Source: a virus
Lineage: Duplodnaviria; Heunggongvirae; Uroviricota; Caudoviricetes
Virus record (IMG/VR): IMGVR_UViG_2562617113_000015
Span: 1 to 30,093 of that record
Length of the DNA: 30,093 nt
Strand: one strand, 5' to 3'
Shown: in pieces, positions 1 through 24,792 of the stretch
Layout: the number at the start of each line of letters is the position of its first letter
Numbering within the stretch: the stretch's first letter is position 1
The notes under the pieces: generated by a model
Database searches by the model: none
Seen by the model: only the letters and a program-made list of their open reading frames with translations
What the model was told of the DNA's origin: nothing
Position numbers and translations under genes: made by a program

Positions 1-1314
1 CTAACTTACTGATTTTAATAGACCTCTTGTGTCACTTTGGTGACTATGGGACATCATTGGGACATAATCTGCCAGCTTCTGATTCAGCATGGCGATCTGT
101 TCTGCATTGCTGTCAGTCATCCATGCTCCGTATACATTGAACACCATCTGGGCACTTGCATGGCCCATCTGGCTGGCAATGAAGCTTGGATTTGCTCCGG
201 CAGATAATGACCAGCACGCATAAGTGTGTCGTGACTGGTATGCCTTTCGATACCTGATGCCAGCACGCTTAATGGCTGTTTCCCATGAGTCGCCAATGGA
301 ATCTACCTTGTAGATAAAACCTACCTGTTTGCTTTTTCTAACCACCTGGGGGTTAAATACGAAAGTACATTCATGATTCACTGAACGTCCATATTCACGT
401 AGTTGCACCTTGATGTGGTGCTGCTTACCCAGTCTTGTCATTTCAGCCTGATTTTTCAGGACACTGATAGCGGGCTGGATAAGATGCACAACCCTGTTTG
501 TACTTGCTTCAGTTTTAGGTAGAGTGAACTCACCGAGTTTCGTATAATTGCGCCTGATAGTAATTGTTCCTGCTTTCAGATCGATATCTTCCCAGGCCAG
601 GGAGACCAGTTCACCATGACGCATTCCTGTGTACACAGCCAATGACCACAGGTTTTTTGTCTGCTGATGCCGGCAAGCATCTATCAGGCGAATAAATTCG
701 TCACGAGTTAGCGGATCTGGCTCTGCCCTGGCTTTTTTAAGAGGCTTAATTCTCTCGAAGGGATTTGCTTCTAAGTAACCGTGATCTGCAGCAAACTGGA
801 ACATTCCAGCGATTGTCGTCATGTAATAATTTACTGTGACAACGCTTCGTCCTTTTACTCGAGCTTTACCTTTTGTTGGATTTTGGTATCCGGTCAGCAA
901 ATCTTTCCTGATATACAGCAATTCCTCTTTGGTCACCGTTGACACCAGTCTGCTACCTCCAATTTTCGGAACCATCGTTCTTGCAACGGATTTATAGCGA
1001 TTGAATGCATTTGCAGAGATTTCCATGCGTTTCAGATCCAGCCACTTTTCTTCAAGTTCTTTCACCGTAATTTCTTTTTTATTTACCCCAAAAGCCTTGA
1101 GGTTAGGAGAGTCAGGGAACTGCGCAGCATAATCAAAGTTTCCTGTACGAATGGCAAAACATACAGATGTCCGCAGCTCTCCGGCGATCTTCCTGTTCTT
1201 GACAGTGTCAGGGACACCAAGATTTTCCCTGACACGTTTACCTTTAAAATTAAACCAGATGCGTAATGTGCCGCCGTGGTTTTCGACGCCTGTTGGATAT
1301 TTGACTTTATCCAT
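1..1314 (-). CDS. int: Tyrosine-type site-specific integrase (437 aa)
   Basis: Long minus-strand ORF at the prophage edge; GGAGG RBS upstream of the ATG at 1314; C-terminal region has the R/H/R/Y-type layout expected of tyrosine recombinases; stop codon is at 1-3, so attL/attR is not in the window. Confidence 0.85.
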   Translation of the reverse strand: MDKVKYPTGVENHGGTLRIWFNFKGKRVRENLGVPDTVKNRKIAGELRTSVCFAIRTGNFDYAAQFPDSPNLKAFGVNKKEITVKELEEKWLDLKRMEISANAFNRYKSVARTMVPKIGGSRLVSTVTKEELLYIRKDLLTGYQNPTKGKARVKGRSVVTVNYYMTTIAGMFQFAADHGYLEANPFERIKPLKKARAEPDPLTRDEFIRLIDACRHQQTKNLWSLAVYTGMRHGELVSLAWEDIDLKAGTITIRRNYTKLGEFTLPKTEASTNRVVHLIQPAISVLKNQAEMTRLGKQHHIKVQLREYGRSVNHECTFVFNPQVVRKSKQVGFIYKVDSIGDSWETAIKRAGIRYRKAYQSRHTYACWSLSAGANPSFIASQMGHASAQMVFNVYGAWMTDSNAEQIAMLNQKLADYVPMMSHSHQSDTRGLLKSVS

Positions 1315-1369
1315 TGATACCTCCAGACGCCCAAGAGCGATACGAGCTTACATATTTCATGGTATTAAA

Positions 1370-1606
1370 TCACCCAGGTTGTTTGTTTTTCATTGAAGAG
1401 ACCCAGGCATCTATTGCTTTTCTGTTATACATACATTCACTGGAAGGTTTTGGATTACCGTCTGGCGATACGTGAATATACTCTCTTCCTACCATCCAGC
1501 ATTCTTTCCGGGCTCGGAGAATTGTGCCAGGTTTGAGCCCGGTAATTGCGATAAGAACGCTTTCACAAACCCATTCATTGGGAGCCAGTTGAATCACATT
1601 GCCCAT
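1370..1606 (-). CDS. xis: Excisionase-like small DNA-binding protein (78 aa)
   Basis: Small ORF immediately upstream of int on the same strand with a GAGG RBS; size and position fit an excisionase; sequence family not verified. Confidence 0.5.
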   Translation of the reverse strand: MGNVIQLAPNEWVCESVLIAITGLKPGTILRARKECWMVGREYIHVSPDGNPKPSSECMYNRKAIDAWVSSMKNKQPG

Positions 1607-1614
1607 GTATTACC

Positions 1615-1761
1615 TCACACAACACTCAGCCCACGGCAGTGGCACCACACTTCAAACATTCGTTTCACAACTTCACGGCAGTAGAAACCGTCAACATCTC
1701 GCGTCAGGTCATAACGATTGCCGTAACGCTGGCGTACCCATAGCTCAAACGCTTTATTCAT
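1615..1761 (-). CDS. Hypothetical small protein (48 aa), not in the ORF track
   Basis: ATG at 1761 (minus) and stop at 1615-1617 read by eye; packed between the flanking genes; below the ORF-track size cutoff. Confidence 0.25.
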   Translation of the reverse strand: MNKAFELWVRQRYGNRYDLTRDVDGFYCREVVKRMFEVWCHCRGLSVV

Positions 1762-1764
1762 TCG

Positions 1765-2007
1765 CTACTTCCTTTTCATGGCTCGTAATTTTTTCAGATG
1801 AGCTTCCTGCTCTGTTTCTGCCAGAATTTGTCGGTATTCCTGGTGATCGATCCGTTCAAACGATTCATTAAAATCGTTCATTTTTACCGATTGTGTTCGC
1901 CCATCCATTCTTCTGTACAACACGGTGTTATTTATGCAGCGAATAATTTTTACCGGGTAACCGGCACTGTCGGTATACAGTTGTCCCTGATTAATCAAAG
2001 CAAACAT
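1765..2007 (-). CDS. Hypothetical protein (80 aa)
   Basis: Internal ATG (MFALINQ...) preceded by GGAG; the track ORF 1765..2130 is probably over-extended at its 5' end. Confidence 0.45.
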   Translation of the reverse strand: MFALINQGQLYTDSAGYPVKIIRCINNTVLYRRMDGRTQSVKMNDFNESFERIDHQEYRQILAETEQEAHLKKLRAMKRK

Positions 2008-2038
2008 TTTTTCTCCTGCTCTCTGAATAGTGAGAACT

Positions 2039-2416
2039 TCAGAGCCGTATGTTTGTAGCGGGTTCAATACTGATAATTTCTGCTGAGATAAGCATCCCGG
2101 CAAGCCAGAGTTCTCCGGACAGGTCTTCATCCTGACATATCAGTTCGCCAATATTAATGGTGGCCATGATATCTGTTTCCCCTGTGCGCTCATCCTTGAC
2201 TTCTTCATAAGGCAGCGTTGCGTACAGGCTTTCAATAGCGCAACTGATAACATCCAGTCCGGTCAGATTGCCGCCGACAGTAACTTCGAATGTTTCGCGG
2301 TATTCCCATAGTCCGAAAGTTAATCGAACGGTTTGGTTTGCCATGCGTCCGCATGACGTCAGATTCGGGTCATAGTTCATTATTTGCGGTTGAGTATTCT
2401 GGGTGTTCATCTGCAT
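2039..2416 (-). CDS. Hypothetical protein (125 aa)
   Basis: ORF with an AAGGGA RBS upstream of the ATG at 2416; no recognisable family. Confidence 0.5.
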   Translation of the reverse strand: MQMNTQNTQPQIMNYDPNLTSCGRMANQTVRLTFGLWEYRETFEVTVGGNLTGLDVISCAIESLYATLPYEEVKDERTGETDIMATINIGELICQDEDLSGELWLAGMLISAEIISIEPATNIRL

Positions 2417-2449
2417 TTCCCTTAGCCCGGCGCCTGCCGGGCATATAAG

Positions 2450-3277
2450 TTATTTAATCTGGATAAATGGTGTATTGGCACCACTGGTCATGTATTGCGG
2501 CAGTGTACCGTTCCACTTGTTGATGGCTTCCAGCTCCATGACGCCTGGGTTCTGGCGTAGAGCTTCGCCGCGTAAACGAATGGCATCGGCTTCTGCCTGG
2601 GCTTTTGTTCGAATGGCATCAGCCTGTCCGGCAGCTTCCGCACGTAGCATGTTGGCCTCCGCTTCACGTTGCTTGACTTCCTGCTCGCGCTGCAGGGTTT
2701 TCTGGTTTGCCGTGACTTTGGCATTAATGCTGTCGATAACGGTTGGCGGGTACTCCGGCTTACCCACATATGAGAGGCTCATTACCTGAATACCGATAGG
2801 TGTCATCTCTGCCTGAATGTCTTTAAGAGCTTCATCCAGCAGCTCAGACTTGCCGCCGTCGATAAATTTGTCAGTGGTCATTTTGCTGGCCAGTCGGTTG
2901 AGTGCGTCGGCGATCTTCTGGCGCAGGTCAGTGTCGGTAATGTCATCCACGCCTTTGCGGTAGGTCTGAAACACCGTGGTAACTTTGGATGGATCAACTT
3001 TGTAGGCCACGCCAATGTGATAGCCGATGGTTGTACCGTCACTCATCTGGAAACTGAACGGTTCATCGTAGGTCTTCATTTGTTTGAAGGTGGGGAAGAT
3101 ATAAACTTCAGTATTCCAGCCAGTCCAGTAGCGACCAACACCGACCACCTCACCGACGCCTTTGTCGTCGCCCAGTTTATTTACCTTGATGCCAACATTA
3201 CCTGGTTCAACGCGATCGCAACCGACAAGGCCAATAGTCGGCAGAACAATGGCTAAAGCAAAAATAATTTTTTTCAT
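2450..3277 (-). CDS. SPFH/band-7 (prohibitin-like) lipoprotein (275 aa)
   Basis: N-terminal signal peptide ending in lipobox L-V-G-C; central SPFH-like region; C-terminal Ala/Glu/Arg/Gln-rich coiled coil; AAGGA RBS; start overlaps the upstream gene's stop (ATGA). Confidence 0.8.
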   Translation of the reverse strand: MKKIIFALAIVLPTIGLVGCDRVEPGNVGIKVNKLGDDKGVGEVVGVGRYWTGWNTEVYIFPTFKQMKTYDEPFSFQMSDGTTIGYHIGVAYKVDPSKVTTVFQTYRKGVDDITDTDLRQKIADALNRLASKMTTDKFIDGGKSELLDEALKDIQAEMTPIGIQVMSLSYVGKPEYPPTVIDSINAKVTANQKTLQREQEVKQREAEANMLRAEAAGQADAIRTKAQAEADAIRLRGEALRQNPGVMELEAINKWNGTLPQYMTSGANTPFIQIK

Positions 3278-3462
3278 CTTTTATCCTTAGTGAAAGAAAG
3301 ACCCTTGTAAATGGCATAAATGCAGGGCGGGGTCAGAAACGCCAGTGCAAAGCCAGAAATAACTGCTATCGTATCCTTCATGGATATAAGGAACGGAACG
3401 AGTAATCCGTAAATGCATGCGATAATTGCCAGTAAAATTACTATTGTGAAATACAGTCTCAT
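3274..3462 (-). CDS. Small two-helix membrane protein (62 aa), translationally coupled to the SPFH gene
   Basis: Two hydrophobic segments; stop overlaps the SPFH start codon (ATGA at 3274-3277). Confidence 0.6.
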   Translation of the reverse strand: MRLYFTIVILLAIIACIYGLLVPFLISMKDTIAVISGFALAFLTPPCIYAIYKGLSFTKDKR

Positions 3463-3485
3463 TGGTCTGTGGTATCCCGATATTT

Positions 3486-3593
3486 TTAACCGACTGACAG
3501 CGCAATAAAGAGAATAATGATTTCAGTTAGTGTCAGTACTGTGGCAAGGATTAAAATCAGTTTTACTCTGTTTAATTCACGGTTGCTTTTCAT
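3486..3593 (-). CDS. Possible small hydrophobic peptide (35 aa: MKSNRELNRVKLILILATVLTLTEIIILFIALSVG)
   Basis: Read by eye on the minus strand; charged N-terminus followed by a single predicted transmembrane helix; no clear Shine-Dalgarno. Confidence 0.25.
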   Translation of the reverse strand: MKSNRELNRVKLILILATVLTLTEIIILFIALSVG

Positions 3594-3638
3594 ATAAACG
3601 GTTGGTAAAAGATGGAAGAATTATATTCTTCTTAATAT

Positions 3639-4220
3639 TTAATGTGTCACTGGCGCTTCTGGCATACCATGAGTATTCAGGTCGTTCATCATTTCATCCA
3701 GAAGGAGTTCAAGCCCTTCGCGCCCCATAGCAGAAATAATGAAACCATTATCAGGATCTGCGATGAGCATTTTTTGATAGAGAAACAGAACTCGCCCCAT
3801 GCCTTCAGCTTCGCCATATTTTTCAATAAATCCCCATTCGACGTGGTTTTGCAGGGCAATACGAAGTGGTCCGGGGTAGATACTCAGGCAACCATGTTTA
3901 CCCTTGTAAATAACCGCGTGATCTGTAGTTCCGTTATCGTTAGGGATATCAACGGTACCGTTCTTGTCTTTCTCTTCATTTATAAACGTAGTCACATACA
4001 GCCATCGCCACTGAGCAACCTTCATATCGACTGAAAATCGTCCCAGCAACCCTGCATCATCGGCTTCAGCAATACATTGCATGATTCTTAAGCCGTGCCA
4101 GTATGGATTGTCGTATTCACCATCATTAAGTCGCTGTACGGCATCAACAAAATTAATGGTTGTATTGCCAATTTTTATGCCATGTGGCGTAACTTCTGGT
4201 CGGAAATCTGAATGATTCAT
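3639..4220 (-). CDS. Hypothetical protein (193 aa), last gene of a coupled three-gene unit
   Basis: Internal ATG at 4220 preceded by AAGGAG; start overlaps the stop of the upstream 62-aa gene (ATGA at 4217-4220); AT-rich; no recognisable family. Confidence 0.6.
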   Translation of the reverse strand: MNHSDFRPEVTPHGIKIGNTTINFVDAVQRLNDGEYDNPYWHGLRIMQCIAEADDAGLLGRFSVDMKVAQWRWLYVTTFINEEKDKNGTVDIPNDNGTTDHAVIYKGKHGCLSIYPGPLRIALQNHVEWGFIEKYGEAEGMGRVLFLYQKMLIADPDNGFIISAMGREGLELLLDEMMNDLNTHGMPEAPVTH

Positions 4221-4405
4221 AATGTTTGCTCCTTTGCTGGTGGAATAATCGTGTAGCCAGCTCTTTTTGCCATCCACAGAAATGTATCCATGCAGCCAAC
4301 GAATTCATTATCCAACAGATGTTTTGAGTAAATTACTTCACCATTTTCAATGGTTAGCAACACTCTTACTTTTTTATGTGTTATGTTTTGTTGTTTTTCT
4401 TTCAT
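4217..4405 (-). CDS. Hypothetical protein (62 aa)
   Basis: GGGAGA RBS; translationally coupled to the downstream 193-aa gene. Confidence 0.5.
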   Translation of the reverse strand: MKEKQQNITHKKVRVLLTIENGEVIYSKHLLDNEFVGCMDTFLWMAKRAGYTIIPPAKEQTL

Positions 4406-4409
4406 TTAT

Positions 4410-4523
4410 TTATCTCCCATATGCTTTGCGCAAATACAGGTTGGCTATATGAAGATAAGAATCTCCATGTTGTGCAATGAGGCAGGCAGTTTTATACGAT
4501 GCCTTATGTTTCAGGAAAGTCAT
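4410..4523 (-). CDS. Possible small basic protein (37 aa: MTFLKHKASYKTACLIAQHGDSYLHIANLYLRKAYGR)
   Basis: Read by eye; AGGAG RBS 8 nt upstream of the ATG at 4523; stop lies 4 nt before the start of the next gene. Confidence 0.25.
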   Translation of the reverse strand: MTFLKHKASYKTACLIAQHGDSYLHIANLYLRKAYGR

Positions 4524-4601
4524 AACATAATCTCCTGCGAATAAAGGTTGCAACAATCCCCGGCGATAAAACCGTAATAAACATTCAGTGAATATTTATT
4601 G

Positions 4602-4802
4602 TTATTGCGCTAATTCTTTTTTGACTGCAGCTTTCGAATATTCACATGCAAAAGACAGGATTTCATCACCTAATGTTTTTGCATTCTGATTATTTGACAT
4701 CTGTAAAACTTGCGCAGCGCACAACAGACTATGAATGTTTATTGCAAATGAATCCGATGCCAGACAAATACCTTCGAAATTGTCATGGATATTACTATTC
4801 AC
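4602..4802 (-). CDS. Small protein (66 aa) paralogous to the N-terminal domain of the adjacent HTH protein
   Basis: GTG start with AAGGAG RBS; segment DSFAINIHSLLCAAQVL...ILSFACEY aligns with DSFALNIANLLSAVRTF...VMEFIHEY of the upstream gene. Confidence 0.55.
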   Translation of the reverse strand: MNSNIHDNFEGICLASDSFAINIHSLLCAAQVLQMSNNQNAKTLGDEILSFACEYSKAAVKKELAQ

Positions 4803-4807
4803 TGCTG

Positions 4808-5260
4808 TTACTCCTTTGCAGCATTGCTACCAGTCAATAACCACATCGGATCGCAGCCAAGAATATTTGCCAGTGGGATAAGCATACTGATGGTTGGTTC
4901 ATACTCTCCGCTCTCCCACTGGATGATGATTTCTTCATCAAGAGCGAGCAGCCTGGCGAGTTCGGCTGTTGTTAAGCCGCAGGCTTCGCGTTGGGTGCGA
5001 AGGTTAACCAGCCAGCTTTCAGGGAAGGATTGTTTTTGTTGTGCAGGAGAAGCAGCAGATAGAGCATATTCATGGATAAATTCCATTACCTCAATGCCCA
5101 GTTCCTTTGAGCGAGCACAATCCAGAAGATGGAATGTGCGTACAGCACTTAGCAAATTTGCAATATTTAATGCAAAGGAATCAAGTTCTAAGCCCTTAAG
5201 CGTAACACAGCCGCAGTTGATAAAATTAGTTGTTTCTGGAGTTGCTTTTAGTGTCTTCAT
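4808..5260 (-). CDS. Two-domain protein (150 aa): unknown N-terminal domain plus C-terminal Cro/C1-type (XRE) HTH
   Basis: C-terminal GLTTAELARLLALDEEIIIQWESGEYEPTISMLIPLANILGCDPMWLL is a typical XRE HTH; first gene downstream of the PL-like promoter. Confidence 0.75.
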   Translation of the reverse strand: MKTLKATPETTNFINCGCVTLKGLELDSFALNIANLLSAVRTFHLLDCARSKELGIEVMEFIHEYALSAASPAQQKQSFPESWLVNLRTQREACGLTTAELARLLALDEEIIIQWESGEYEPTISMLIPLANILGCDPMWLLTGSNAAKE

Positions 5261-5290
5261 ATACCCACCAACAATTTTAAATTGAATTAA

Positions 5291-5342
5291 ATCAAGTTAT
5301 AATTGATGGTGCGATATTATGCTTTGGGAAATAGGCTGTCAA
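5291..5342 (-). promoter_or_regulatory. PL-like leftward promoter with OL operator
   Basis: Minus strand reads TTGACA-N17-TAATAT (-35 at 5337-5342, -10 at 5314-5319); perfect 17-bp palindrome ATCAAGTTATAATTGAT at 5291-5307 at the predicted start site; the ATCAAG half-site recurs in OR. Confidence 0.5.
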
Positions 5343-5370
5343 GAAAAAATTGATATCGTATATTTCAGGC

Positions 5371-5397
5371 AGAAAAAAAACGGGCAAAGCCCGTTAA
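5371..5397 (-). terminator. Rho-independent terminator downstream of the cI-like gene
   Basis: 7-bp stem (AACGGGC / GCCCGTT) with a 3-nt loop, followed on the minus strand by a U8 run; sits 10-30 nt after the cI stop. Confidence 0.65.
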
Positions 5398-5406
5398 AAT
5401 CAAAGA

Positions 5407-6096
5407 CTAACCAAATCTGTTTATGTTGAATGGTACTGATGAGATCACTTTAGACTGGATATAAAGCAGAGCTAACCCCTCTTTTTCGATGCTCCATGGT
5501 TGATAATTGGGGTTATCAGATAACACCATGATTTTGCTTCCAATTTTTTGAAGCCTTTTCACGTAGCATTCTCCATCAAAACAAAATGCATAAATACCAT
5601 CGCCATCAAAATAAGTTACTGTCTTATCAAGAAAAAGAAGGTCGCCAGGTGAGATTGTGGGAGCCATACTGTCTCCTCTGGCGTTACCTATTTCTATATT
5701 TTTGAATGCCCGATTTCCAACAAGACGTCGGGCATATTCAGGATCAAGTTCTATTGAGCGCACTACATCTATCAAGTCACCACGGACATGAGTTCCATCA
5801 CCGCAACTAAACTCAACATCAAGGACATTAAACACGACGCTATCTGTTCTTGTCTGGTGTTTCTCTTGCGAGGAAAAGGTTGGTGAGGAGTCTTCACCTA
5901 AGAACCAGGATTGTGGATAACCGCTAATCTCTGATAAATGCGCGAGCTTATCACTCCGTGGAAATGTTTTTCCTGTTGTCCAGTACTGCACTGATTGCGC
6001 ACTCACACCTAACTTGCGGGCCAGTTGAGCCTGAGTCCATCCTTTTGCTTTCAGCATCGCGGCTATTCGATTTTCCGTGTTTTTGACGTTCTTCAT
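5407..6096 (-). CDS. cI: CI-like prophage repressor (229 aa): N-terminal HTH plus C-terminal S24 (LexA-like) autopeptidase domain
   Basis: N-terminal HTH (GWTQAQLARKLGVSAQSVQYW); C-terminal G-D-S-M serine motif and a downstream lysine, as in LexA/CI; divergent from the cro-like gene. Confidence 0.9.
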   Translation of the reverse strand: MKNVKNTENRIAAMLKAKGWTQAQLARKLGVSAQSVQYWTTGKTFPRSDKLAHLSEISGYPQSWFLGEDSSPTFSSQEKHQTRTDSVVFNVLDVEFSCGDGTHVRGDLIDVVRSIELDPEYARRLVGNRAFKNIEIGNARGDSMAPTISPGDLLFLDKTVTYFDGDGIYAFCFDGECYVKRLQKIGSKIMVLSDNPNYQPWSIEKEGLALLYIQSKVISSVPFNINRFG

Positions 6097-6229
6097 GACC
6101 AGGTCCTGTGGGTTTCTTTACAAGGATAAATCTTTACTTGATTTTAGTGTATTCGATCCTTTTGCAACTTGCATGTTAATTTAATCTTGATGTATTCTTG
6201 TGTTATCAAGTTAATATTGGTGTTTTGCT
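6097..6229. promoter_or_regulatory. OR-like immunity region with divergent PRM/PR promoters and operator half-sites
   Basis: Intergenic region between divergent cI and cro; ATCAAG/CTTGAT half-sites at 6138-6143, 6186-6191 and 6205-6210; candidate PR is TTGATG-N18-TTAATA (6187-6216); exact -35/-10 assignments are uncertain. Confidence 0.55.
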
Positions 6230-6530
6230 ATGAAAGGAAATGATTACGACGTACTTCGCGCATTAATTGCGCAAAATGCCATTGCACGAAACCTTGGTGT
6301 AACTCCGCAAGCGGTGAATCAGTGGTTTTCCAAAAAACACAATTCCTGCTCGTTTTGTTTTACGCGTATGTGAAGTAGTTGCATGGAAGGTCACGCCACA
6401 TGGCTTAAGGCCAGATCTTTATCCTCACCCTGAAGATGGAATTCCTGATTCGTTACGCAAAATTTCAAATCCAAGCCTAGCGCGCACGGAAGATGGGCAG
6501 AGTGATTCATCAGAAATGTCCACGCGATGA
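6230..6530 (+). pseudogene. cro: Cro/YdaS-like regulator, frame-disrupted at an A6 run (6332-6337)
   Basis: The ATG frame gives an HTH (LGVTPQAVNQWFSK) and stops at 6371-6373 after ...HNSCSFCFTRM; the +1 frame continues TIPARFVLRVCEVVAWKVTPHGLRPDLYPHPEDG... to a stop at 6528-6530, matching the C-terminal pattern of YdaS-type Cro proteins. Confidence 0.55.
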
Positions 6531-6606
6531 ACGGTTACTGAACGAAAAAAGAAAAGCCGGGCCGCACTCCGTCAGCCCGACTTATTCTGATTAGTAAGGG
6601 GATTTC

Positions 6607-7374
6607 ATGATGATCAATAAACAAAAAATAGTCAACCCTGAAAACTTGCCAGTTATTGAGTGGCAGGGAGTACGTGTAGTTACCACCGAAACGTTGGCGG
6701 CGGGATATGGAACAACGCCAATCCGTATACAACAGAACTACATTCGAAACGAAGATCGTTTCGTTGAGGGTAAACACTTTTTCAAAATCAGCGGTGATGA
6801 GCTGAAATCTTTCCGACTATCTTTTAGCGAGTCGGTTAATAAACATACAACATCACTTGTCCTCTGGACAGAACGCGGCGCTGCCCGCATGTCAAAAATC
6901 GTCGATACAGACGAGGCCTGGTCGTTCTTCGAAAAAATGGAGCAGGCGTATTTTCGTAAAGCAACGCCTTCTTCAAACACTATTCCAGACTTTGACGATC
7001 CGATCGCTGCTGCTGAAGCGTGGATTGAAGCCAAAAAATCCGAACGCCTTGCTCTCGGGTATGCAGAGCGTCAGGCTCGCTACATCAGCAAACTCGAAAG
7101 CCATCTCGCCGATGGCATCACTCCTGTGCAGTTCTGCAAACAACTCAACGGTGTAAACACTCGTCAGATTAATGCGTTCCTTGAAGAGCGTAACTGGCTG
7201 TATGACGACCGTCCGGAGGCTATGTATCCGCGCTGGCGTGTAAAAGCGTATGCACGTGACCAATACCTGACTGAGCGTTCTGGGCAGGTTGAGCAGGAAA
7301 ACGGGGAAATGCGCGAGATTTTCAAACCACTCCTGAAGAAAAAAGGTGCCCCTGGTTATATCGCCATTATCTGA
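6607..7374 (+). CDS. Antirepressor-family protein (255 aa), ORF6N-like N-terminal domain plus Ant-like C-terminal domain
   Basis: AAGGGG RBS; motif LWTERGAARM shared with the 13225..13713 gene (ILWTERGAARHAKM); C-terminal region resembles phage antirepressor C-terminal domains. Confidence 0.8.
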   Translation: MMINKQKIVNPENLPVIEWQGVRVVTTETLAAGYGTTPIRIQQNYIRNEDRFVEGKHFFKISGDELKSFRLSFSESVNKHTTSLVLWTERGAARMSKIVDTDEAWSFFEKMEQAYFRKATPSSNTIPDFDDPIAAAEAWIEAKKSERLALGYAERQARYISKLESHLADGITPVQFCKQLNGVNTRQINAFLEERNWLYDDRPEAMYPRWRVKAYARDQYLTERSGQVEQENGEMREIFKPLLKKKGAPGYIAII

Positions 7375-7459
7375 ACGGTGAACTACCGATGAAGAAAACA
7401 TGGGATGGGCTGTTTACCCATAACACTGAGCTCGCGAATCTTTTACAGGAGAACAAATA

Positions 7460-7669
7460 ATGCAAACCAAGACGTGTGTAACTGGTGATGTCGATCTGAA
7501 ACCTTGCCCGTTCTGCGGAAATCCGGAAGTACAACTCATTGAGGTGAAATATTTTCTGGATGGCGATGATGGTTATTACGTCGCATGTACTTGCTGTAAC
7601 GCAAACCAGATCCCTGATTCGAAAGAACGTGCTGTTCATGACTGGAATCAGCGCGAAAACGCGGATTGA
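7460..7669 (+). CDS. lar: Lar-family restriction-alleviation-like zinc-ribbon protein (69 aa)
   Basis: CPFCG ... CTCC cysteine pairs and size fit the Lar family as remembered; AGGAG RBS. Confidence 0.6.
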   Translation: MQTKTCVTGDVDLKPCPFCGNPEVQLIEVKYFLDGDDGYYVACTCCNANQIPDSKERAVHDWNQRENAD

Positions 7670-7705
7670 TGGCGAGTAGGTACAAAATGATCCGCAACCA
7701 ACATA

Positions 7706-16266: not shown

Positions 16267-16449
16267 ATGACGCGAAAACACTGGACACACAGAATGCCGC
16301 GAACGGCGGTGAAATGGGCACTGGTAGCGATACTGGTGCCTTTTTTCCTGGTGGGCTGCGTCAGCCTGGATAAGGCGCGCCAGCTTTTCGATACAGCTTC
16401 TCAGGTCTGTGAAATTGTTGATAGTGTCCGGCAGTGTATGCAGAACTGA
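16267..16449 (+). CDS. Small lipoprotein (60 aa), possible outer-membrane spanin-like component
   Basis: Signal peptide with lipobox L-V-G-C; lies after the lysis genes; not proline-rich, so the spanin assignment is tentative. Confidence 0.45.
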   Translation: MTRKHWTHRMPRTAVKWALVAILVPFFLVGCVSLDKARQLFDTASQVCEIVDSVRQCMQN

Positions 16450-16491
16450 CCGACGGTGAGAGCAGAATATTTTTTAGAGGAGCGAAATTCT

Positions 16492-16842
16492 ATGCCATCA
16501 CAAATCCCTCGTGCATGCCGTAAGCGAGGCTGCGCAGGCACAACGACGGACAGTTCTGGCTACTGCGATAAGCATCGCGGCGAAGGTTGGACACAACATC
16601 AACGCGGACTGAGCCGCCACCAGCGTGGCTATGGCTCGAAATGGGATGCCATACGTGCGCGCATACTGAAGCGTGATAATCATTTGTGTCAGAACTGCCT
16701 GCGCAATGGGAGAGCCGTTGAAGCCAGAACTGTGGACCACATCATTCCGAAAGCGCATGGCGGTACGGATGCAGACGGTAATCTGCAGAGCCTGTGCTGG
16801 CCATGCCACAAGGCGAAAACAGCGCGTGAACGCATCAACTGA
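16492..16842 (+). CDS. HNH endonuclease (about 116 aa)
   Basis: GAGGAG RBS; Cys-rich HNH region (CQNC ... DHIIPKAHGG ... CWPCH); HNH-before-terminase arrangement. Confidence 0.8.
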   Translation: MPSQIPRACRKRGCAGTTTDSSGYCDKHRGEGWTQHQRGLSRHQRGYGSKWDAIRARILKRDNHLCQNCLRNGRAVEARTVDHIIPKAHGGTDADGNLQSLCWPCHKAKTARERIN

Positions 16843-16990
16843 TAATCGTTCTCATCTGTAAGGGAGGGGCGGGTCAAATCTCTGCAACCCTGGCTGCTCA
16901 GTACCGCCGCCTGACCCTTCCTCACATCGCCGCAGGTTCGAAAACTTTTTTTTGGAAATGTGAACAAACGATTGATAGGTAAGACCGATT

Positions 16991-17473
16991 ATGTCAGGAC
17001 CTCCGAAAACCCCGCCACGCCTGCATTTGATACGAGGCAACCCCTCAAAGCGTCCCGTTAAAGACCACAAAAAAACCGCTAAAAAGGATGAAAAAGGTCT
17101 TCCTAAAATTCCGCAGCATTTAGGGGCTCAGGGGAAGTACTGGTTCAGGCGAATGGCGGAAGAGCTGAATGCGGAAGGGATCATTTCTCAGCTTGATGCA
17201 CGTGCGCTCGAGTTGCTGGTGGAAGCCTACACCGAATATCGGCATCACTGCGAAACACTCGATGTTGAGGGGTATACTTACCGCACGGAAACGCAGAGCG
17301 GTGATGTACTGATTAAGGCGCACCCCGCGGCGGCAATGAAAGCGGATGCCTGGAAGCGGATCCGGGCAATGCTTGCAGAGTTTGGTATGTCACCGGCAAG
17401 CCGGGCTAAAGTAAATATCGCCGGACCGGATGATGTTGATCCGCTGGCGGAGCTTTTAAAAGCGAGAGACTGA
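16991..17473 (+). CDS. terS: Terminase small subunit (P27-like family)
   Basis: Position immediately before the large terminase; size and basic N-terminus. Confidence 0.75.
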   Translation: MSGPPKTPPRLHLIRGNPSKRPVKDHKKTAKKDEKGLPKIPQHLGAQGKYWFRRMAEELNAEGIISQLDARALELLVEAYTEYRHHCETLDVEGYTYRTETQSGDVLIKAHPAAAMKADAWKRIRAMLAEFGMSPASRAKVNIAGPDDVDPLAELLKARD

Positions 17474-19230
17474 TGGCAAAAGTGGCTGACGGGATCCGCT
17501 ACGCCGAACGTGTTGTTGCAGGAGAAATTGTTGCTGGCGAATTTGTCCGCCTGGCCTGCCAGCGTTTTCTTGATGATCTGAAGTACGGCGAAGAGCGGGG
17601 GATTTATTTCAGTGAACCCCGTGCGCAGCACATCCTGAATTTCTACAAATTTGTGCCTCATGTAAAAGGGGCGCTGGCAGGCCAGCCCATTGAGTTGATG
17701 GACTGGCATGTATTTATCCTCATTAATATTTTTGGTTTTGTCATTCCGCTGGTCAATGAAGAGACCGGGGAAGTTGTCATGCGCAGCGATGGCAGCGGAC
17801 GTCCGGTGATGGTGCGCCGGTTCCGGACGGCGTACAACGAAGTCGCCCGTAAAAACGCAAAATCAACTCTGTCATCGGGTATCGGCCTGTATATGACGGG
17901 GGCAGATGGTGAAGGCGGAGCTGAGGTGTATTCAGCCGCAACCACGCGTGACCAGGCCAGAATCGTGTTTGAAGACGCCAAAAATATGGTCAGAAAAGCC
18001 CGGTCGACACTCGGGCGGTTGTTTGATTTCAACAAGCTGGCGATTTACCAGGAGCAGAGCGCATCAAAATTTGAACCGCTTTCTTCGGATGCAAACAACC
18101 TGGATGGTCTGAACATTCACTGCGCCATTATTGATGAGCTGCATGCACATAAAACCCGTGACGTGTGGGACGTTCTGGAAACGGCAACCGGTGCTCGTCT
18201 GCAGTCCCTTTTATTTGGTATCACCACGGCAGGGTTTAACAAGGAAGGGATTTGTTACGAGCAGCGTGATTACGCCATCAAGGTATTGCGTGGCTATAAC
18301 AGCGACGTGGAGGGCGCGGTAAAAGACGACTCCTACTTTGCGATTATTTACACCCTCGATGAGGGAGATGATCCGTTTGATGAAACGGTCTGGCAGAAAG
18401 CGAATCCCGGCCTGGGCATCTGTAAACGCTGGGATGATCTGCGTCGCTTGGCGAAAAAAGCGAAAGAACAGGTCTCTGCACGGGTGAATTTTTTTACCAA
18501 ACACATGAATGTGTGGGTAACAGCAGAGTCTGCCTGGATGGACATGATTAAGTGGGAGAAGTGCGAATACATTGCCCCACGACATGAGCTGAAAACGTAT
18601 CCCATGTGGGTCGGCGTTGACCTTGCTCATAAGATTGATATCTGTGCGGCGGCAAAACTCTGGCGAACGGATAACGGGCATGTTCATGCCGATTTTAAAT
18701 TCTGGCTTCCGGAAGGACGGCTGGAACGATGCTCGCGGCAGCAGGCAGAACTTTACCGGAAGTGGGCGGAGATGGATAAGCTGATTCTGACGGATGGTGA
18801 TGTTATCGATCATGCTCAGATAAAAAGTGACTTACTGGAATGGATTGGTGGTGAAAACCTCAGGGAACTGGGATTTGACCCGTGGAGCGCGATGCAGTTC
18901 AGCCTGGCACTGGCTGAAGAAGGGATACCGCTGGTGGAGGTTCCGCAGACGGTTCGCAATCTGTCAGAGGCCATGAAGGAAACGGAATCACTGGTCTATG
19001 CCGGGCGTTTCCATCACAGCAATCATCCGGTCATGAACTGGATGATGTCTAACGTTACGGTAAAACCGGACAAAAACGACAATATCTTCCCGAATAAATC
19101 CACGCTGGAAGCCAAAATCGACGGTCCTGTTGCGATGTTTACAGCAATGAGCCGGATGCTGGTCAATGGCGGTGAACCGGAGCCGGATCTGTCTGAGCAT
19201 CTGGTCAGCGTTGGTATCCGCTCGCTTTAA
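17473..19230 (+). CDS. terL: Terminase large subunit (585 aa)
   Basis: Long ORF with an ATPase N-terminal half and nuclease C-terminal half, in the expected position. Confidence 0.9.
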
Positions 19231-19241
19231 CCGAGGTCATT

Positions 19242-19424
19242 ATGTTTCTGATAATTCTCACGCCACTGGTGGGCGTGCTGGGGGCGCTTTTGCTGTCGTA
19301 TGGCACATGGCTGATTTATCCCCCGGCAGGTTTTGTTGTTGCCGGGGGGCTGTGCCTGTGCTGGTCGTGGCTGGTTGCGCGTTATCTCGATCGTGGTCAC
19401 CGGGTCGCCTCCGGAGGTGAGTAA
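19242..19424 (+). CDS. Small membrane protein (60 aa)
   Basis: Two hydrophobic helices; overlaps the portal start. Confidence 0.45.
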
Positions 19425-20665
19425 TGTTTTTCCAGGGGCTTTTTCAACGTAAAAATAATACCCCCGTCACAACGCCCGGGATGCTTGCGGAAGAACTTGG
19501 GTTGTCATACGACACCTATACCGGAAAGCGGATCAGCAGTCAGCGGGCCATGCGGCTGACGGCGGTGTATTCCTGCGTCAGGGTGCTGGCGGAGTCTGTT
19601 GGTATGCTGCCCTGCAGCCTCTACAAAATCACCGGCACTCTTAAAACACGGGCAGTGGATGAACGACTGCATAAGCTGATTTCGGCAAAACCCAATGGCT
19701 ACATGACACCGCAGGAATTCTGGGAGCTGGTTATCGTCTGCCTGTGTCTGCGGGGTAATTTTTACGCTTACAAGGTGAAGGCGCTGGGAGAAGTGGTGGA
19801 GCTTCTTCCTATAGATCCGGGATGTGTGGAGCCGAAGCTGAACTGTCAGTGGCAGCCGGTTTATCAGGTGACATTTCCGGATGGTTCTGTGGATGTGCTG
19901 ACTCAGGATGAAATCTGGCATGTGCGTACTCTGACGCTGGACGGACTGGTCGGGCTGAATCCCATTGCGTATGCGCGTGAGGCCATTTCACTGGCAGCGG
20001 CAACCGAGGAGCACGGTGCCAGGTTGTTTGGCAACGGTGCAGTGACATCCGGTGTGTTGCGTACGGATCAACAACTTTCTGATCAGGCTTATGCGCGTAT
20101 CAAAAAGGATTTTGAGGAACGGCATGTCGGGCTGGGAAATTCTCATCGTCCGATGATTCTGGAAATGGGGCTGGACTGGAAAACGGTGGCACTGAATGCC
20201 GAGGACAGCCAGTTCCTGGAAACCCGCAAGTTTCAGCTGGAAGAAATCTGTCGCCTGTTCCGCGTGCCGCTGCATATGGTGCAGAACACCGATCGCGCCA
20301 CCTTCAACAATATTGAAGAGCTGGGGCTTGGTTTCATTAACTATTCCCTTGTGCCGTATCTGACCCGTATTGAGCAACGGATCAATACAGGGCTGGTCAG
20401 GGAGAGCAAGCAGGGGAAGTTTTACGCCAAATTTAATGCCGGAGCATTGTTGCGTGGCGACATGAAATCCCGCTTTGAAGCGTATGCCACGGGGATCAAC
20501 TGGGGGATTTATTCCCCTAATGACTGCCGTGATCTGGAAGATATGAATCCCAGACCGGGTGGTGATGTGTATCTGACACCGATGAACATGACCACCAGTC
20601 CCTCTGCTGGCGATGACAACGGTAAGAAAAAGGAGAGTGGAGATGCAGACAAAACAGCGTCTTGA
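19424..20665 (+). CDS. Portal protein (HK97-like family)
   Basis: Size (413 aa) and position after terminase. Confidence 0.9.
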   Translation: MFFQGLFQRKNNTPVTTPGMLAEELGLSYDTYTGKRISSQRAMRLTAVYSCVRVLAESVGMLPCSLYKITGTLKTRAVDERLHKLISAKPNGYMTPQEFWELVIVCLCLRGNFYAYKVKALGEVVELLPIDPGCVEPKLNCQWQPVYQVTFPDGSVDVLTQDEIWHVRTLTLDGLVGLNPIAYAREAISLAAATEEHGARLFGNGAVTSGVLRTDQQLSDQAYARIKKDFEERHVGLGNSHRPMILEMGLDWKTVALNAEDSQFLETRKFQLEEICRLFRVPLHMVQNTDRATFNNIEELGLGFINYSLVPYLTRIEQRINTGLVRESKQGKFYAKFNAGALLRGDMKSRFEAYATGINWGIYSPNDCRDLEDMNPRPGGDVYLTPMNMTTSPSAGDDNGKKKESGDADKTAS

Positions 20666-21293
20666 TATACCGCTGAACCTGAAATCCGTCAGTGATTCCG
20701 GGGAATTTGAAGGTTACGGTTCTGTTTTTGGTGTTAAGGACAGCCACGATGATGTGGTGGTCCCCGGTGCCTTTACCACAACACTCCAGAAATGGAGCGA
20801 AAAAAAGGCGCTGCCTGCGTTGCTCTGGCAGCACCGCATGGATGAGCCCATCGGTGTGTACACCGAAATGAAAGAAGATGATGTCGGGCTTTATGTCAGG
20901 GGGCGATTACTCGTTGATGATGATCCCCTGGCAAAACGTGCACATGCCCATATGAAGGCCGGTTCTTTAACCGGCCTTTCTATTGGCTACATCCTGAAAG
21001 ACTGGGAGTACGACCGTGAAAAAGGGGTATTCCTGCTGAAAGAGATCGACTTGTGGGAGGTCAGTCTGGTGACGTTTCCTTCCAATGATGAGGCACGCAT
21101 CAGCGATGTGAAAAATGCGCTGGCGCGTGGGGAGATCCCTGATCAGAAAATTATTGAGCGAGTCCTGCGCGATGTTGGACTCTCGCGAACCCAGGCCAAA
21201 GCATTCATGGCCGGGGGATATGGCGCTTTATCCCTGCGTGATGCTGAGGATGTGGATGCCGCACTGAATGCACTGAAAAATCTTAAATTTTAA
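20643..21293 (+). CDS. Prohead maturation protease (HK97-like)
   Basis: AAGGAGAG RBS upstream of ATG 20643; position between portal and capsid genes. Confidence 0.85.
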   Translation: MQTKQRLDIPLNLKSVSDSGEFEGYGSVFGVKDSHDDVVVPGAFTTTLQKWSEKKALPALLWQHRMDEPIGVYTEMKEDDVGLYVRGRLLVDDDPLAKRAHAHMKAGSLTGLSIGYILKDWEYDREKGVFLLKEIDLWEVSLVTFPSNDEARISDVKNALARGEIPDQKIIERVLRDVGLSRTQAKAFMAGGYGALSLRDAEDVDAALNALKNLKF

Positions 21294-21307
21294 CCAGGAG
21301 AAAAATA

Positions 21308-22531
21308 ATGGCTGACATTAAAGATGTGGAGCAGGTCGCGCAGGAGCTGCAGCAGAAGTTTGACGATTTTAAGGCAAAAAACGACAAGCGCATTGACGCG
21401 ATCGAACAGGAAAAAGGCAAGCTGGCCGAACAGGTGGAAAGCCTGAACGGGCAAATCAGCGAGCTGGAGAACCTGAAAAGCGACCTGGAAAAAGAGCTGG
21501 CAGACATCAAGCGTCCGGCAGGCGGCACGCAAAATAAAGTTGCCAGTGAACACAAAGAAGCGTTTATCGGATTTATGCGCAAGGGGCGTGAAGACGGCCT
21601 GCGTGAGCTGGAGCGTAAGGCGCTGCAGGTGGGCAATGATGAAGATGGCGGTTATGCCATTCCGGAAGAACTGGATCGCACCATTCTGACGCTACTGAAA
21701 GATGAGGTGGTGATGCGCCAGGAAGCCACTGTGATCACCCTCGGGGGCTCGGATTATAAAAAACTGGTGAATCTGGGCGGCACAACGTCCGGATGGGTGG
21801 GGGAAACGGATGCACGTCCGGAAACCGCCACCTCAAAACTGGGGCTGATTGAACCCTTTATGGGGGAAATCTACGGCAACCCGCAGGCCACCCAGAAAAT
21901 GCTCGATGACGCTTTCTTCAATGTGGAAGACTGGATCAACAGTGAGCTGGCGCTGGAATTTGCCGAACAGGAAGAAATTGCCTTTACCAGTGGCGACGGC
22001 AGCAAAAAACCAAAAGGTTTTCTGGCTTATGAGTCCACCGATGAAGATGACAAGACCCGTGCGTTTGGCAAACTTCAGCACATCGCTTCCGGTGCGGCTT
22101 CTGGCGTGACTGCCGATGCGATCATTAAACTGATTTACACCCTGCGCAAGGCGCATCGCAGCGGCGCGAAGTTCATGATGAATAACAGCAGCCTGTTTGC
22201 CATTCGCCTGCTGAAGGATAACGACGGAAATTATCTGTGGCGTCCGGGCATTGAGCTGGGTCAGCCTTCTTCACTGGCGGGGTATGGCATCGTTGAGAAT
22301 GAGCAGATGCCGGATATTGCTGCCGATGCAAAAGCTATTGCGTTTGGTAACTTCAAACGCGGCTATACCATCGTTGATCGTATCGGCACCCGCATCCTGC
22401 GCGATCCTTACACCAACAAACCGTTTGTGGGCTTTTATACAACCAAACGAACCGGCGGTATGCTGGTGGATTCTCAGGCGATTAAGCTGATGAAGATCGG
22501 TGCTGCAACCCGCCAGAAAGCCGCTGCGTAA
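21308..22531 (+). CDS. Major capsid protein (HK97 fold) with N-terminal coiled-coil delta domain
   Basis: GGAG RBS; 407 aa; coiled-coil N-terminus followed by a capsid-protein-like body. Confidence 0.9.
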   Translation: MADIKDVEQVAQELQQKFDDFKAKNDKRIDAIEQEKGKLAEQVESLNGQISELENLKSDLEKELADIKRPAGGTQNKVASEHKEAFIGFMRKGREDGLRELERKALQVGNDEDGGYAIPEELDRTILTLLKDEVVMRQEATVITLGGSDYKKLVNLGGTTSGWVGETDARPETATSKLGLIEPFMGEIYGNPQATQKMLDDAFFNVEDWINSELALEFAEQEEIAFTSGDGSKKPKGFLAYESTDEDDKTRAFGKLQHIASGAASGVTADAIIKLIYTLRKAHRSGAKFMMNNSSLFAIRLLKDNDGNYLWRPGIELGQPSSLAGYGIVENEQMPDIAADAKAIAFGNFKRGYTIVDRIGTRILRDPYTNKPFVGFYTTKRTGGMLVDSQAIKLMKIGAATRQKAAA

Positions 22532-22575
22532 TGCAGTTTTTTATGCCCGCACAGTGTTGCGGGCAGGAGTTTCTG

Positions 22576-22893
22576 ATGGCAGCAATAGTGGAAAAACTCA
22601 GGGCGCAGTGCCGTATTGATACAGATGATGCAACTGATGATGAGTTACTGATGCTGTATTTCCGGGCTGCCTGCCGCAAGGCAGAAAATTTTATCAACCG
22701 TAAGCTTTATGAGGAGATGGTGCCGGAAGGTGATCCTGAAGGGGTGCTTATAGCTGATGATGTTTTGTTGGCGCTCATGTTGCTGGTCGGACACTGGTAC
22801 GAAAACCGGGAAAATTCCTCAGATGTCAGCAAGGCACCAGTCCCGTTTGGTTTTTCTTCTCTGCTGGAGCCTTATCGTTTTATTCCTTTGTAG
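22576..22893 (+). CDS. Head-tail connector protein (gp6-like)
   Basis: AGGAG RBS upstream of ATG 22576; small acidic protein directly after the capsid gene. Confidence 0.7.
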   Translation: MAAIVEKLRAQCRIDTDDATDDELLMLYFRAACRKAENFINRKLYEEMVPEGDPEGVLIADDVLLALMLLVGHWYENRENSSDVSKAPVPFGFSSLLEPYRFIPL

Positions 22894-22901
22894 GAGGAAC
22901 C

Positions 22902-23240
22902 ATGCAGGCGGGCAGATTACGTGATCGCGTAACTATTCTGAATGTCACCACCGCCCGCTCTCCGTCAGGGCATCCGGTGGAGACGGTGACGGAGGGAGCT
23001 ACCGTATGGGCAGAAGTTAAGGGTATCAGCGGGAGGGAGAGAATATCAGGAGGTGCAGAAACCGCTCAGGCTACGGTCAGAGTCTGGATGAGATTCCGAC
23101 GCGATGTGACGGCAGCTTCACGTCTGAAAGTGCTGACCGGTGCATTCAAAGGAGCCATTCTTGGTATAGAAGGGCCACCAATACCGGATGCACGCACCAC
23201 CCGGCTTGAAATACTCTGCAGCCTGAAGGGGAATGTGTGA
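22902..23240 (+). CDS. Head closure / head-tail adaptor protein
   Basis: Size and position in the HK97-like head-tail joining module. Confidence 0.75.
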   Translation: MQAGRLRDRVTILNVTTARSPSGHPVETVTEGATVWAEVKGISGRERISGGAETAQATVRVWMRFRRDVTAASRLKVLTGAFKGAILGIEGPPIPDARTTRLEILCSLKGNV

Positions 23241-23686
23241 TGGATTTCAGTCTTGATTTTTCCGGCCTGGCGGATATTGCACGGGATCTGGAGACGCTCA
23301 GCAGGGCAGAAAACAATAAGGTTCTGCGCGATGCCACCCGTGCCGGTGCTGAAATTATGCGGGATGCAGTTGTTGAACGTGCGCCGGAGCGAACCGGGAA
23401 ACTGAAGAAAAATGTGGTTGTTCTCACGCAGCGTTCAAAGCGTCGGGGGGAAATTATCTCGGGTGTCCACATTCGCGGACGGAACCTGCGAACCGGAAAC
23501 AGTGATAACAGCATGAAAGCCAGCGATCCCCGAAATGCGTTTTACTGGCGCTTTGTGGAGCTGGGAACGATAAACATGCCCGCGCATCCATTCATTCGCC
23601 CGGCTTTCGATACGACAGAGGAGCTGGTGGCGCAGGTTGCCATACAGCGAATGAATCAGGCTATTGATGAGGTCTTAAGTAAATGA
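23237..23686 (+). CDS. HK97 gp10-like tail component
   Basis: Overlapping start/stop with flanking genes; position. Confidence 0.7.
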   Translation: MMDFSLDFSGLADIARDLETLSRAENNKVLRDATRAGAEIMRDAVVERAPERTGKLKKNVVVLTQRSKRRGEIISGVHIRGRNLRTGNSDNSMKASDPRNAFYWRFVELGTINMPAHPFIRPAFDTTEELVAQVAIQRMNQAIDEVLSK

Positions 23687-24027
23687 GGGAAGCCACACTG
23701 TATTCCCTGCTGTCTCAGTTGGCCGGAGGACAGGTTTATCCTTATGTGGTCCCGCTGACGGAGGGAAAGCCTGCGGTATCTCCGCCGTGGCTGGTGTTTT
23801 CTGTGGTGTCTGACACGGCGTCTGATGTGCTTGATGGTCAGGCTGAATCCAGAATTACCGTGCAGATCGATGTCTGGGCAACAGTACCTGATGACGCAGA
23901 TGATATCCGAGAACAGGCGCTTGATGCGGTAAGGCAACTTGTACCCTCCGTTATTTCTAAAACTCAGGGTTATGATCCTGATTCCCGTCTGAGCAGAGCC
24001 ACGCTTGAATTTCAGGTAATAGCCTGA
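23683..24027 (+). CDS. Tail completion/terminator-like protein
   Basis: Position immediately before the major tail protein. Confidence 0.55.
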   Translation: MREATLYSLLSQLAGGQVYPYVVPLTEGKPAVSPPWLVFSVVSDTASDVLDGQAESRITVQIDVWATVPDDADDIREQALDAVRQLVPSVISKTQGYDPDSRLSRATLEFQVIA

Positions 24028-24087
24028 GGTCGTTAATGATTTTACCCACCCACCGCTGTCGGATTTTTTTATTTTCAGGAGACGAGT

Positions 24088-24792
24088 ATGTCCTCTAATT
24101 TTGAGCGTTCGCAACTGACGAAAATTATGATTTCGTCTGCACCGGTAACAGCAGAAACCCTGGATTCTGCCAGCTATCTTGGCCTGAGCTGTACAATCAA
24201 AGAGGTGCAGTTTACCGCAGGACAAAAGCAGGATATTGATGTCACCACGCTGTGTTCTGTTGAGCAGGAAAATATTAACGGTCTTGGTGCCGCGTCAGAG
24301 ATTTCCATGTCAGGCAACTTTTACCTCAATGCTGCCCAGAACGCGTTGCGCAGTGCCTATGACAATGACACCACGTATGGCTTTAAAGTTATTTTTCCGT
24401 CAGGAAACGGATTTACCTTTATGGCAGAGGTGCGTCAGCATACCTGGTCTGCAGGAACCAATGGTGTTGTGGCTGCAACGTTTTCCCTGCGCCTGAAAGG
24501 TAAACCTGTGCTGGCGACAGAGCCGCTGAAAGTGAAGGTCGATTTAAACAGCACGCTGCAGGTTTCTGCCGGAGCGAAACTCGAAATGGTGGTTGAGGCT
24601 GCCGGTGGTGTGCCGCCTTATTCTTATGTCTGGAAGAAAGGTAGTTCTCCTGTTTCCGGACAGACGGCGGCAACGTTCAGTAAGGCATTTGCAGTATCCG
24701 GTGATGCGGGCGCATATACCTGCGAGATTTCTGATTCAGCAAGCCCGGTTAACAAAGTGACCTCCACTTCCTGCACTGTAACCGTCAGTTAA
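24088..24792 (+). CDS. Major tail protein with C-terminal Ig-like domain
   Basis: RBS; the C-terminal 90 aa resemble an Ig-like domain as in lambda gpV. Confidence 0.8.
   Translation: MSSNFERSQLTKIMISSAPVTAETLDSASYLGLSCTIKEVQFTAGQKQDIDVTTLCSVEQENINGLGAASEISMSGNFYLNAAQNALRSAYDNDTTYGFKVIFPSGNGFTFMAEVRQHTWSAGTNGVVAATFSLRLKGKPVLATEPLKVKVDLNSTLQVSAGAKLEMVVEAAGGVPPYSYVWKKGSSPVSGQTAATFSKAFAVSGDAGAYTCEISDSASPVNKVTSTSCTVTVS

Follow-up and report, generated by a model that had tools for sequence, protein, structure and literature searches.

[quoted passage not shown]

Results

Immunity region and prophage layout

We analysed a stretch of 30,093 bp, referred to here as the window, which is the last 30,093 bp of contig AHZD02000010.1 (GCA_000247665.4) of the 2013 draft genome of E. 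coli O157:H43 strain T22. The element that it holds is a complete-looking lambdoid prophage. A Cro-like gene is the first gene of the rightward early operon and is divergent from the gene of a CI-like repressor, with putative operators shared between the two. This order of repressor, spacer and Cro-like gene is the classic lambdoid immunity layout. Further downstream follow an ORF6N/KilAC antirepressor-like gene, Lar, an Ash/Rha-type regulator, replication genes, Q, lysis genes and HK97-type structural genes. The features of the immunity region are:

5407..6096, minus strand: CI-like repressor, 229 aa, with an N-terminal HTH_3 domain and a C-terminal Peptidase_S24 self-cleavage domain (open reading frame list, Pfam)
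6097..6229, no strand: divergent regulatory region, the 133-bp spacer between the repressor and the Cro-like gene (repeat search)
6130-6142, 6179-6191 and 6205-6218: three related inverted-repeat, operator-like sites of the ATC..AAG/CTT..GAT type (repeat search)
6230..6373, plus strand: 5' fragment of the Cro-like gene as deposited, with an ATG start, 47 codons and the stop codon TGA at 6371-6373 (open reading frame list)
6330..6331, plus strand: the lesion, CC in place of the single C of all homologues, a one-base insertion that causes a +1 frameshift (alignment and pairwise differences)
6332..6337, plus strand: A6 run of wild-type length, not the site of the difference (alignment columns invariant)
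6339..6530, plus strand: 3' portion of the Cro-like gene, which lies in the +1 frame and encodes residues 37-99 of the 99-aa protein before the stop codon at 6528-6530
6554..6583, minus strand: putative GC-rich terminator-like hairpin between the stop of the Cro-like gene and the ORF6N gene (consensus scan only)

Both repressor domains scored over the Pfam cut-offs (PF01381 with 33.3 bits, PF00717 with 62.4 bits), and in relatives the protein is annotated as 'XRE family transcriptional regulator' (WP_000800136.1). Just downstream of the repressor lies a second HTH_3/HTH_19 protein of 150 aa (4808..5260, minus strand) which is conserved in relatives. By analogy with the lambdoid layout we infer an operator role for the three inverted-repeat sites. 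Within 6097-6229 a consensus scan for promoters gave no sigma-70-like match. In its intact form the Cro-like gene would be expressed from the rightward early promoter, opposite the S24-cleavable repressor, and would encode an HTH protein of 99 aa. As with lambda Cro and YdaS of CP-933P, such a Cro analogue would be expected to bind the shared operators during lytic development and thereby to lower the activity of the repressor promoter.

From the gene order we take the DUF72 gene beside the integrase (window 1..1314; flank L007:1-3790) to be yecE, and the genes beyond it are presumably yecN, cmoA and cmoB. One of the phage records matched in the search for homologues of the Cro-like protein carries the name PPyecE. 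The T22 genome announcement describes all known Stx-phage integration sites as intact (PMC3668004), yet this prophage lies beside the presumed yecE. A literature search gave nothing usable on the prophages of T22.

Reading frames and site of the break

A preliminary description, made from the sequence alone, had proposed that a Cro gene of the YdaS type is broken by a frameshift, that the frame bearing the HTH ends after 47 codons and that the rest of the protein continues in the +1 frame; the break itself was mapped to the A6 run. The frame break is really in the deposited sequence and both frames are as described, but the cause given was off by one base and named the wrong nucleotide.

The product of 6230..6373 is the 47-aa peptide MKGNDYDVLRALIAQNAIARNLGVTPQAVNQWFSKKHNSCSFCFTRM, followed by the stop codon. 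Its residues 1-35 are native, containing the HTH and ending in IARNLGVTPQAVNQWFSK, while residues 36-47 are translated out of frame. The +1 frame is open from 6318 up to the stop codon at 6528-6530; from 6339 it reads NTIPARFVLRVCEVVAWKVTPHGLRPDLYPHPEDG and it ends with STR before the stop. The reading frame at 6330/6331 is disrupted relative to all nine relatives examined, as in a pseudogene.

The site of the disruption was located by alignment. Where the window reads TTTTCCAAAAAAC, the homologues read TTTTCAAAAAAC, i.e. TTTTCC followed by A6 in the window and TTTTC followed by A6 in the homologues, so that the inserted base is the second C at 6330/6331. The run AAAAAA at 6332-6337 is likewise A6 in all five aligned intact homologues and in the comparisons with four further relatives (L008-L011). 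We therefore rejected a change in the length of the A run as the cause of the frameshift. The intact gene reads CAG TGG TTT TCA AAA AAC ACA at this site, which translates into Q W F S K N T. Codon arithmetic shows that shortening A6 to A5 in the deposited sequence would give F-S-K-N-T and hence the exact wild-type protein. The earlier expectation that an altered A-run length restores the frame is thus arithmetically right, but it is not what distinguishes the window from its relatives, and it was probably this arithmetic that drew attention to the A run. Before a frameshift beside a homopolymer is interpreted, its position should be fixed by aligning the gene with intact homologues.

Intact homologues and family of the gene

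The 521 bp around the Cro-like gene match 130 complete E. coli chromosomes. In each of the five chromosomes that we fetched the gene is an uninterrupted CDS annotated as 'transcriptional regulator', with a length of 300 bp in four of them (e.g. WP_063083379.1) and of 273 bp in O103:H2 strain 12009, where the 3' end is divergent. For the two closest of the aligned chromosomes, E. coli E21845/O/A and UTAK-5, the DNA is the same as that of the window save for the second C. Because removing one base makes the window identical to these intact 300-bp genes, the two-frame arrangement is not a chance juxtaposition of reading frames. A single C was found in all nine relatives that we examined in detail (L001-L005 and L008-L011). 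An intact Cro-like open reading frame was annotated or called in eight of them, with 99 aa in seven and as the 273-bp CDS in the other (L005). It was absent from the gene-caller listing of L008, though the single C is present there as well. At the site of the break the frame continues without interruption in all nine.

We scored the intact allele (L011:4786-5085, which is the DNA of the window minus one C) against protein families and solved structures. The 99-aa protein matched PF15943 (YdaS_toxin) over residues 15-66 with 47.3 bits, above the gathering score of 30, whereas the deposited 47-aa product reached 26.9 bits, below that cut-off, and covered positions 11-35 of the 65 positions of the profile. 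Weaker matches of the intact protein were to HTH_3 and to PF14549 (P22_Cro), the latter with 23.4 bits and below its cut-off of 30.2. The best match to a solved structure was PDB 3bd1, 'Cro protein' (E = 0.0014), over residues 11-66 and hence spanning the break; P22 Cro (1rzs) was matched with E = 0.094. A homologue is annotated as Cro in phage records. Together with the divergent CI-like repressor, the Pfam and PDB matches bear out the earlier identification of the gene as a YdaS-type Cro analogue with a +1 frameshift. Such YdaS/Cro analogues of lambdoid prophages are already known, and the gene is an ordinary one of this kind.

The allele with two Cs was seen nowhere else. Among 5,426 complete E. 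coli genomes a 71-bp probe gave no match of 99% or more, and the best value, 98.6%, corresponds to one gap. A 42-mer containing CC had 0 exact matches in IMG/VR and 0 in the JGI metagenome contigs, whereas 19 IMG/VR contigs contain the 41-mer of the wild-type sequence. As for the 47-aa product, its exact sequence is recorded for no contig other than AHZD02000010.1. The lesion was thus not reproduced in any of the independent data that we compared, namely the near-identical assembly LYNF01 described below, the 5,426 complete genomes, IMG/VR and the JGI metagenome contigs.

These comparisons bear directly on the idea that the two frames form one functional gene, with full-length protein produced either through transcriptional slippage on the A6 run or through programmed ribosomal frameshifting into the +1 frame; the Cro analogue would then be tunable or phase-variable. 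The A6 run does lie directly at the junction of the frames, and an mRNA or DNA with A5 encodes the wild-type F-S-K-N-T. However, the layout is not conserved: every homologue examined is a single open reading frame at this site and has the same A6. Runs that give efficient polymerase slippage are longer than A6. With a single C in nine of nine relatives and the wild-type 41-mer in the IMG/VR contigs, this non-conservation effectively refutes programmed frameshifting or slippage, and we regard a functional two-frame gene as next to impossible.

Comparison with a near-identical assembly

LYNF01000001.1 (GCA_001953095.1) is a contig of 3.9 Mb. Three overlapping pieces of it (L011, L051 and L015), retrieved through the integrase, Q and tape-measure proteins of the window, cover the whole window. 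The chromosomal flank of the prophage in T22 is identical to that of LYNF01 (100% over 3,771 bp with zero indels), whereas in three other hosts of the prophage the flank differs by 0.85-2.2%. Positions 1-14330 of the window showed 0 mismatches to LYNF01 and two gaps, an additional C at 6330 and an additional A in the run at 9892-9897. Both insertions break genes that are intact in LYNF01, which carries the complete 99-aa Cro-like gene. The second gene affected is:

9683..10562, plus strand: DnaC/IstB-like helicase-loader gene, split into 81 aa and 213 aa by a T22-only change from A5 to A6 at 9892-9897

The loader gene is intact with 292 aa in L008-L011 and in L042-L051, and the NCBIfam match to the DnaC loader falls below its cut-off. 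The split is probably an artefact of the same kind as the frameshift in the Cro-like gene.

Across 15930-30093 there were no gaps relative to LYNF01. As the whole window holds 180 runs of 5 nt or more, this absence of gaps indicates that indels are not scattered throughout the assembly. Three of the four remaining mismatches are G to A or G to T differences that fall within 12 bp (24052-24063) in a GC-rich hairpin. The LYNF01 version, cccgccgctggcgggttttttt, is a perfect GC hairpin followed by a T run, which is spoilt by the differences in T22. The hairpin is probably the terminator after the tail-completion gene, and the three differences may be consensus errors in a structure that is hard to sequence.

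The comparison with LYNF01 also carries most of the weight against the reading in which the insertion is genuine. T22 would then have lost its Cro analogue and, through the additional A at 9892-9897, its helicase loader as well, leaving lytic growth incomplete and the prophage in early domestication. The frameshift is unambiguous in the deposited sequence, and both isolated T22-only indels lie in genes of the lytic cycle, as selection against induction might predict. Against this, there are zero substitutions relative to LYNF01 in 18.1 kb (the flank plus 1-14330), yet two insertions that shift the frame. If indels arise spontaneously at about one tenth of the rate of substitutions, as in E. 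coli mutation-accumulation data, the probability that two out of two isolated differences are indels is about 0.01. The allele is moreover found nowhere else, be it in the product record, IMG/VR, the JGI metagenome contigs or the 5,426 genomes. For these reasons, and for two more given below, we consider a genuine insertion in T22 unlikely. The narrower version, in which the extra C and the extra A of the loader gene are both real and arose in T22 after its split from the LYNF01 strain, we hold to be slightly less likely still.

If the frameshift were real, it would mean that the lambdoid prophage at yecE had its lytic switch inactivated very recently. Were both insertions real, the prophage at yecE would have been locked only just now, negative for cro and defective in replication, and an otherwise identical pair of strains would display the first steps of domestication. 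The lesion would then be readily reversible, as the loss of one A from the adjoining A6 run restores the exact wild-type protein. The proposal of the preliminary description that the prophage is locked or domesticated through loss of its regulator is not supported by the evidence, though it keeps a small probability.

Other indels and an anomalous stretch of the contig

In the 29.6 kb compared we counted six indels that occur only in T22, at 6330, 9892, 14977, 14986, 15002 and 15035. All six are extensions of a run by one base (in this order C to CC, A5 to A6, TT to TTT, GG to GGG, GG to GGG and T4 to T5), and each of them breaks a gene that is intact elsewhere. The change at 6330 is thus a run-length change of +1 accompanied by further such differences unique to the contig, which is the pattern of errors from flow chemistry. 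A general decay of the prophage through indels was considered and rejected: the ten one-base indels counted relative to E21845/O/A came down to the six T22-only ones once they were polarised with closer relatives. The differences at 2433 and 4617, and also the A-run length at 5373 (relative to other relatives), are common to T22 and LYNF01.

Two further run-length differences in the window are shared with other assemblies. The ORF6N/KilAC antirepressor-like gene (6607..7459) encodes 255 aa, whereas the product has 284-286 aa in other relatives; the cause is the lack of one G at 7351, and about 85 bp of former coding sequence is left ahead of the Lar gene. This deletion is common to T22, LYNF01 and GCA_036878985.1. 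Since the allele occurs in two independent assemblies, it looks like a genuine truncation, unlike the lesion in the Cro-like gene. At 16058..16062 the window and at least eight independent assemblies have G5, where E21845/O/A and a few others have G4. A hypothetical open reading frame of 65 aa after the endolysin gene was called in E21845/O/A and in L012, both with G4, and not in the window or in LYNF01. G5 and G4 at 16062 are a real and recurrent pair of run-length alleles. As shared real alleles, those at 7351 (three assemblies) and 16062 (at least eight) imply that real frameshifts do occur in this prophage lineage, and they speak to that extent for a genuine insertion at 6330.

One stretch of the contig departs from LYNF01 as follows:

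14331..15095, plus strand: anomalous stretch made up of a foreign segment and a mosaic holin gene (comparison with LYNF01, alignment)

The first part, 14331-14834, is an AT-rich segment of 504 bp, unrelated to LYNF01, which stands in place of 503 bp there. The displaced DNA is the 3' half of an AraC-type HTH_18 gene together with its terminator, and the AraC-type product is shortened from 247 aa to 144 aa. The segment matches, at 99.8% identity, the 3' end of a gene annotated as 'subtilase family AB5 toxin binding subunit' together with the spacer downstream of it. Its source type is a different lambdoid prophage, found in strains NADC1036 and SA31-1, where the gene of the AB5 B subunit follows a gene for a scabin-related ADP-ribosyltransferase. 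At the left junction of the segment only a few bases are shared (TGT). The segment is either a chimeric assembly join or the result of real illegitimate recombination.

The second part, 14977..15095, lies in the Phage_holin_8 gene. Here a patch of 120 bp contains 10 mismatches and four one-base insertions, the latter within about 60 bp. Eight of the 10 mismatches match the paralogue of the other prophage type, while the four insertions are in neither type. The holin product is reduced from 130 aa to 100 aa, a form unique to the T22 contig. Judged from these differences, the patch looks like a consensus of mixed paralogues. Four run extensions crowded into about 60 bp have no easy biological explanation, which again counts against the T22-only insertions being genuine mutations.

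The mixing of paralogues raises a related explanation, in which the extra C at 6330 entered the consensus from a paralogous Cro-like region of another T22 prophage or from a minority subpopulation. Such mixing is clear in the holin gene of the same contig, and the foreign segment of 504 bp lies next to it. Around 6330, though, there are no substitutions of the paralogue type, and apart from the extra C kilobases on either side show no difference from LYNF01; nor was a homologue with CC at this site present in the IMG/VR, JGI metagenome and complete E. coli genome collections that we searched. We consider a mixed consensus at 6330 highly improbable.

Sequencing platforms and origin of the extra base

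Strain T22 was sequenced with SOLiD V4 mate pairs, 233,333 Ion Torrent PGM reads (mean length 161 nt) and 73,764 454 Titanium reads (mean length 619 nt), and CLC Genomics Workbench served for trimming and assembly, both of which are described as 'performed manually' (PMC3668004). From the read counts and mean lengths we computed a coverage of roughly 7.5x for Ion Torrent and 9x for 454; that of SOLiD is about 140x. Homopolymers give rise to insertions and deletions in 454 sequencing, and the errors of Ion Torrent are similar (PMC3504008), so the draft was built on platforms prone to miscalled run lengths, and to exactly the kind of error seen here, which is the second point that weighs against a genuine insertion.

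We conclude that the frameshift in the Cro-like gene most likely arose as an artefact when T22 was sequenced or assembled. Four lines of evidence favour this reading: the error-prone platforms, the intact gene in the near-identical LYNF01, the five additional run extensions unique to T22 and the absence of the allele from all other data searched. The error would be an overcall of one base, in which the C that separates T4 from A6 was doubled, and it would have survived in the consensus of a low-coverage hybrid assembly of 454, Ion Torrent and SOLiD data. We infer that it is located in the reads or in the consensus and not in the cell. The uniform direction of the indels, their clustering and the mixing of paralogues are what is expected of a manually curated hybrid assembly of repeated prophage DNA that draws on flow chemistry; spontaneous mutation would not be expected to give them. 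The alternative of a homopolymer sequencing error, which the preliminary description had offered beside a genuine lesion, is accordingly half right: the evidence favours an error, but the inserted base is a C beside the A run.

Several points stand against an artefact. The change from C to CC is no miscount in a long homopolymer, the classic error of flow chemistry, and a SOLiD coverage of about 140x might have been expected to correct the extra C. The otherwise clean window and the real one-base indel alleles at 7351 and 16062 weigh on the same side. We also considered whether the draft has an inflated gene count (5,587 predicted genes on 4.96 Mb compared to about 4,800-4,940 annotated features in complete genomes of similar size), as split genes would produce. 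We set this argument aside as weak, since the count for T22 was 4,792 in an independent re-annotation (PMC5422975). As a practical consequence, calls of gene integrity on the 2013 draft of T22 (AHZD02), especially in prophage regions, are not to be trusted without resequencing.

Comparison with known systems

In its probable origin the lesion resembles the errors of 454 and Ion Torrent drafts: both platforms were used at low coverage, and six run extensions of +1 are found in the contig. It differs from the usual homopolymer errors in that the run at 6330 is a single base (C to CC), flanked by T4 and A6.

The nearest relatives of the gene by family are the YdaS proteins of the Rac prophage of E. 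coli K-12 and of CP-933P of O157:H7, a likeness given by the PF15943 match of the reconstructed 99-aa protein. The genetic context is similar as well, since the Cro-like gene is divergent from a CI-like repressor as ydaS is from racR or paaR2. For YdaS, a role as Cro analogue has been argued, and binding to intergenic operators has been shown (PMC8630535, PMC5917428). In contrast to the YdaS systems, no ydaT or cII-like gene comes next in the window, its place being taken by the ORF6N/KilAC antirepressor-like gene, and the gene is frameshifted as deposited, with its 47-aa product under the threshold of the family. With the structures of lambdoid Cro proteins (3bd1 and P22 Cro, 1rzs) the intact protein shares a similarity that is weak but collinear over residues 11-66. 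It differs from Cro proteins of 60-80 aa by a C-terminal tail of about 35 aa, and its P22_Cro score lies below the cut-off.
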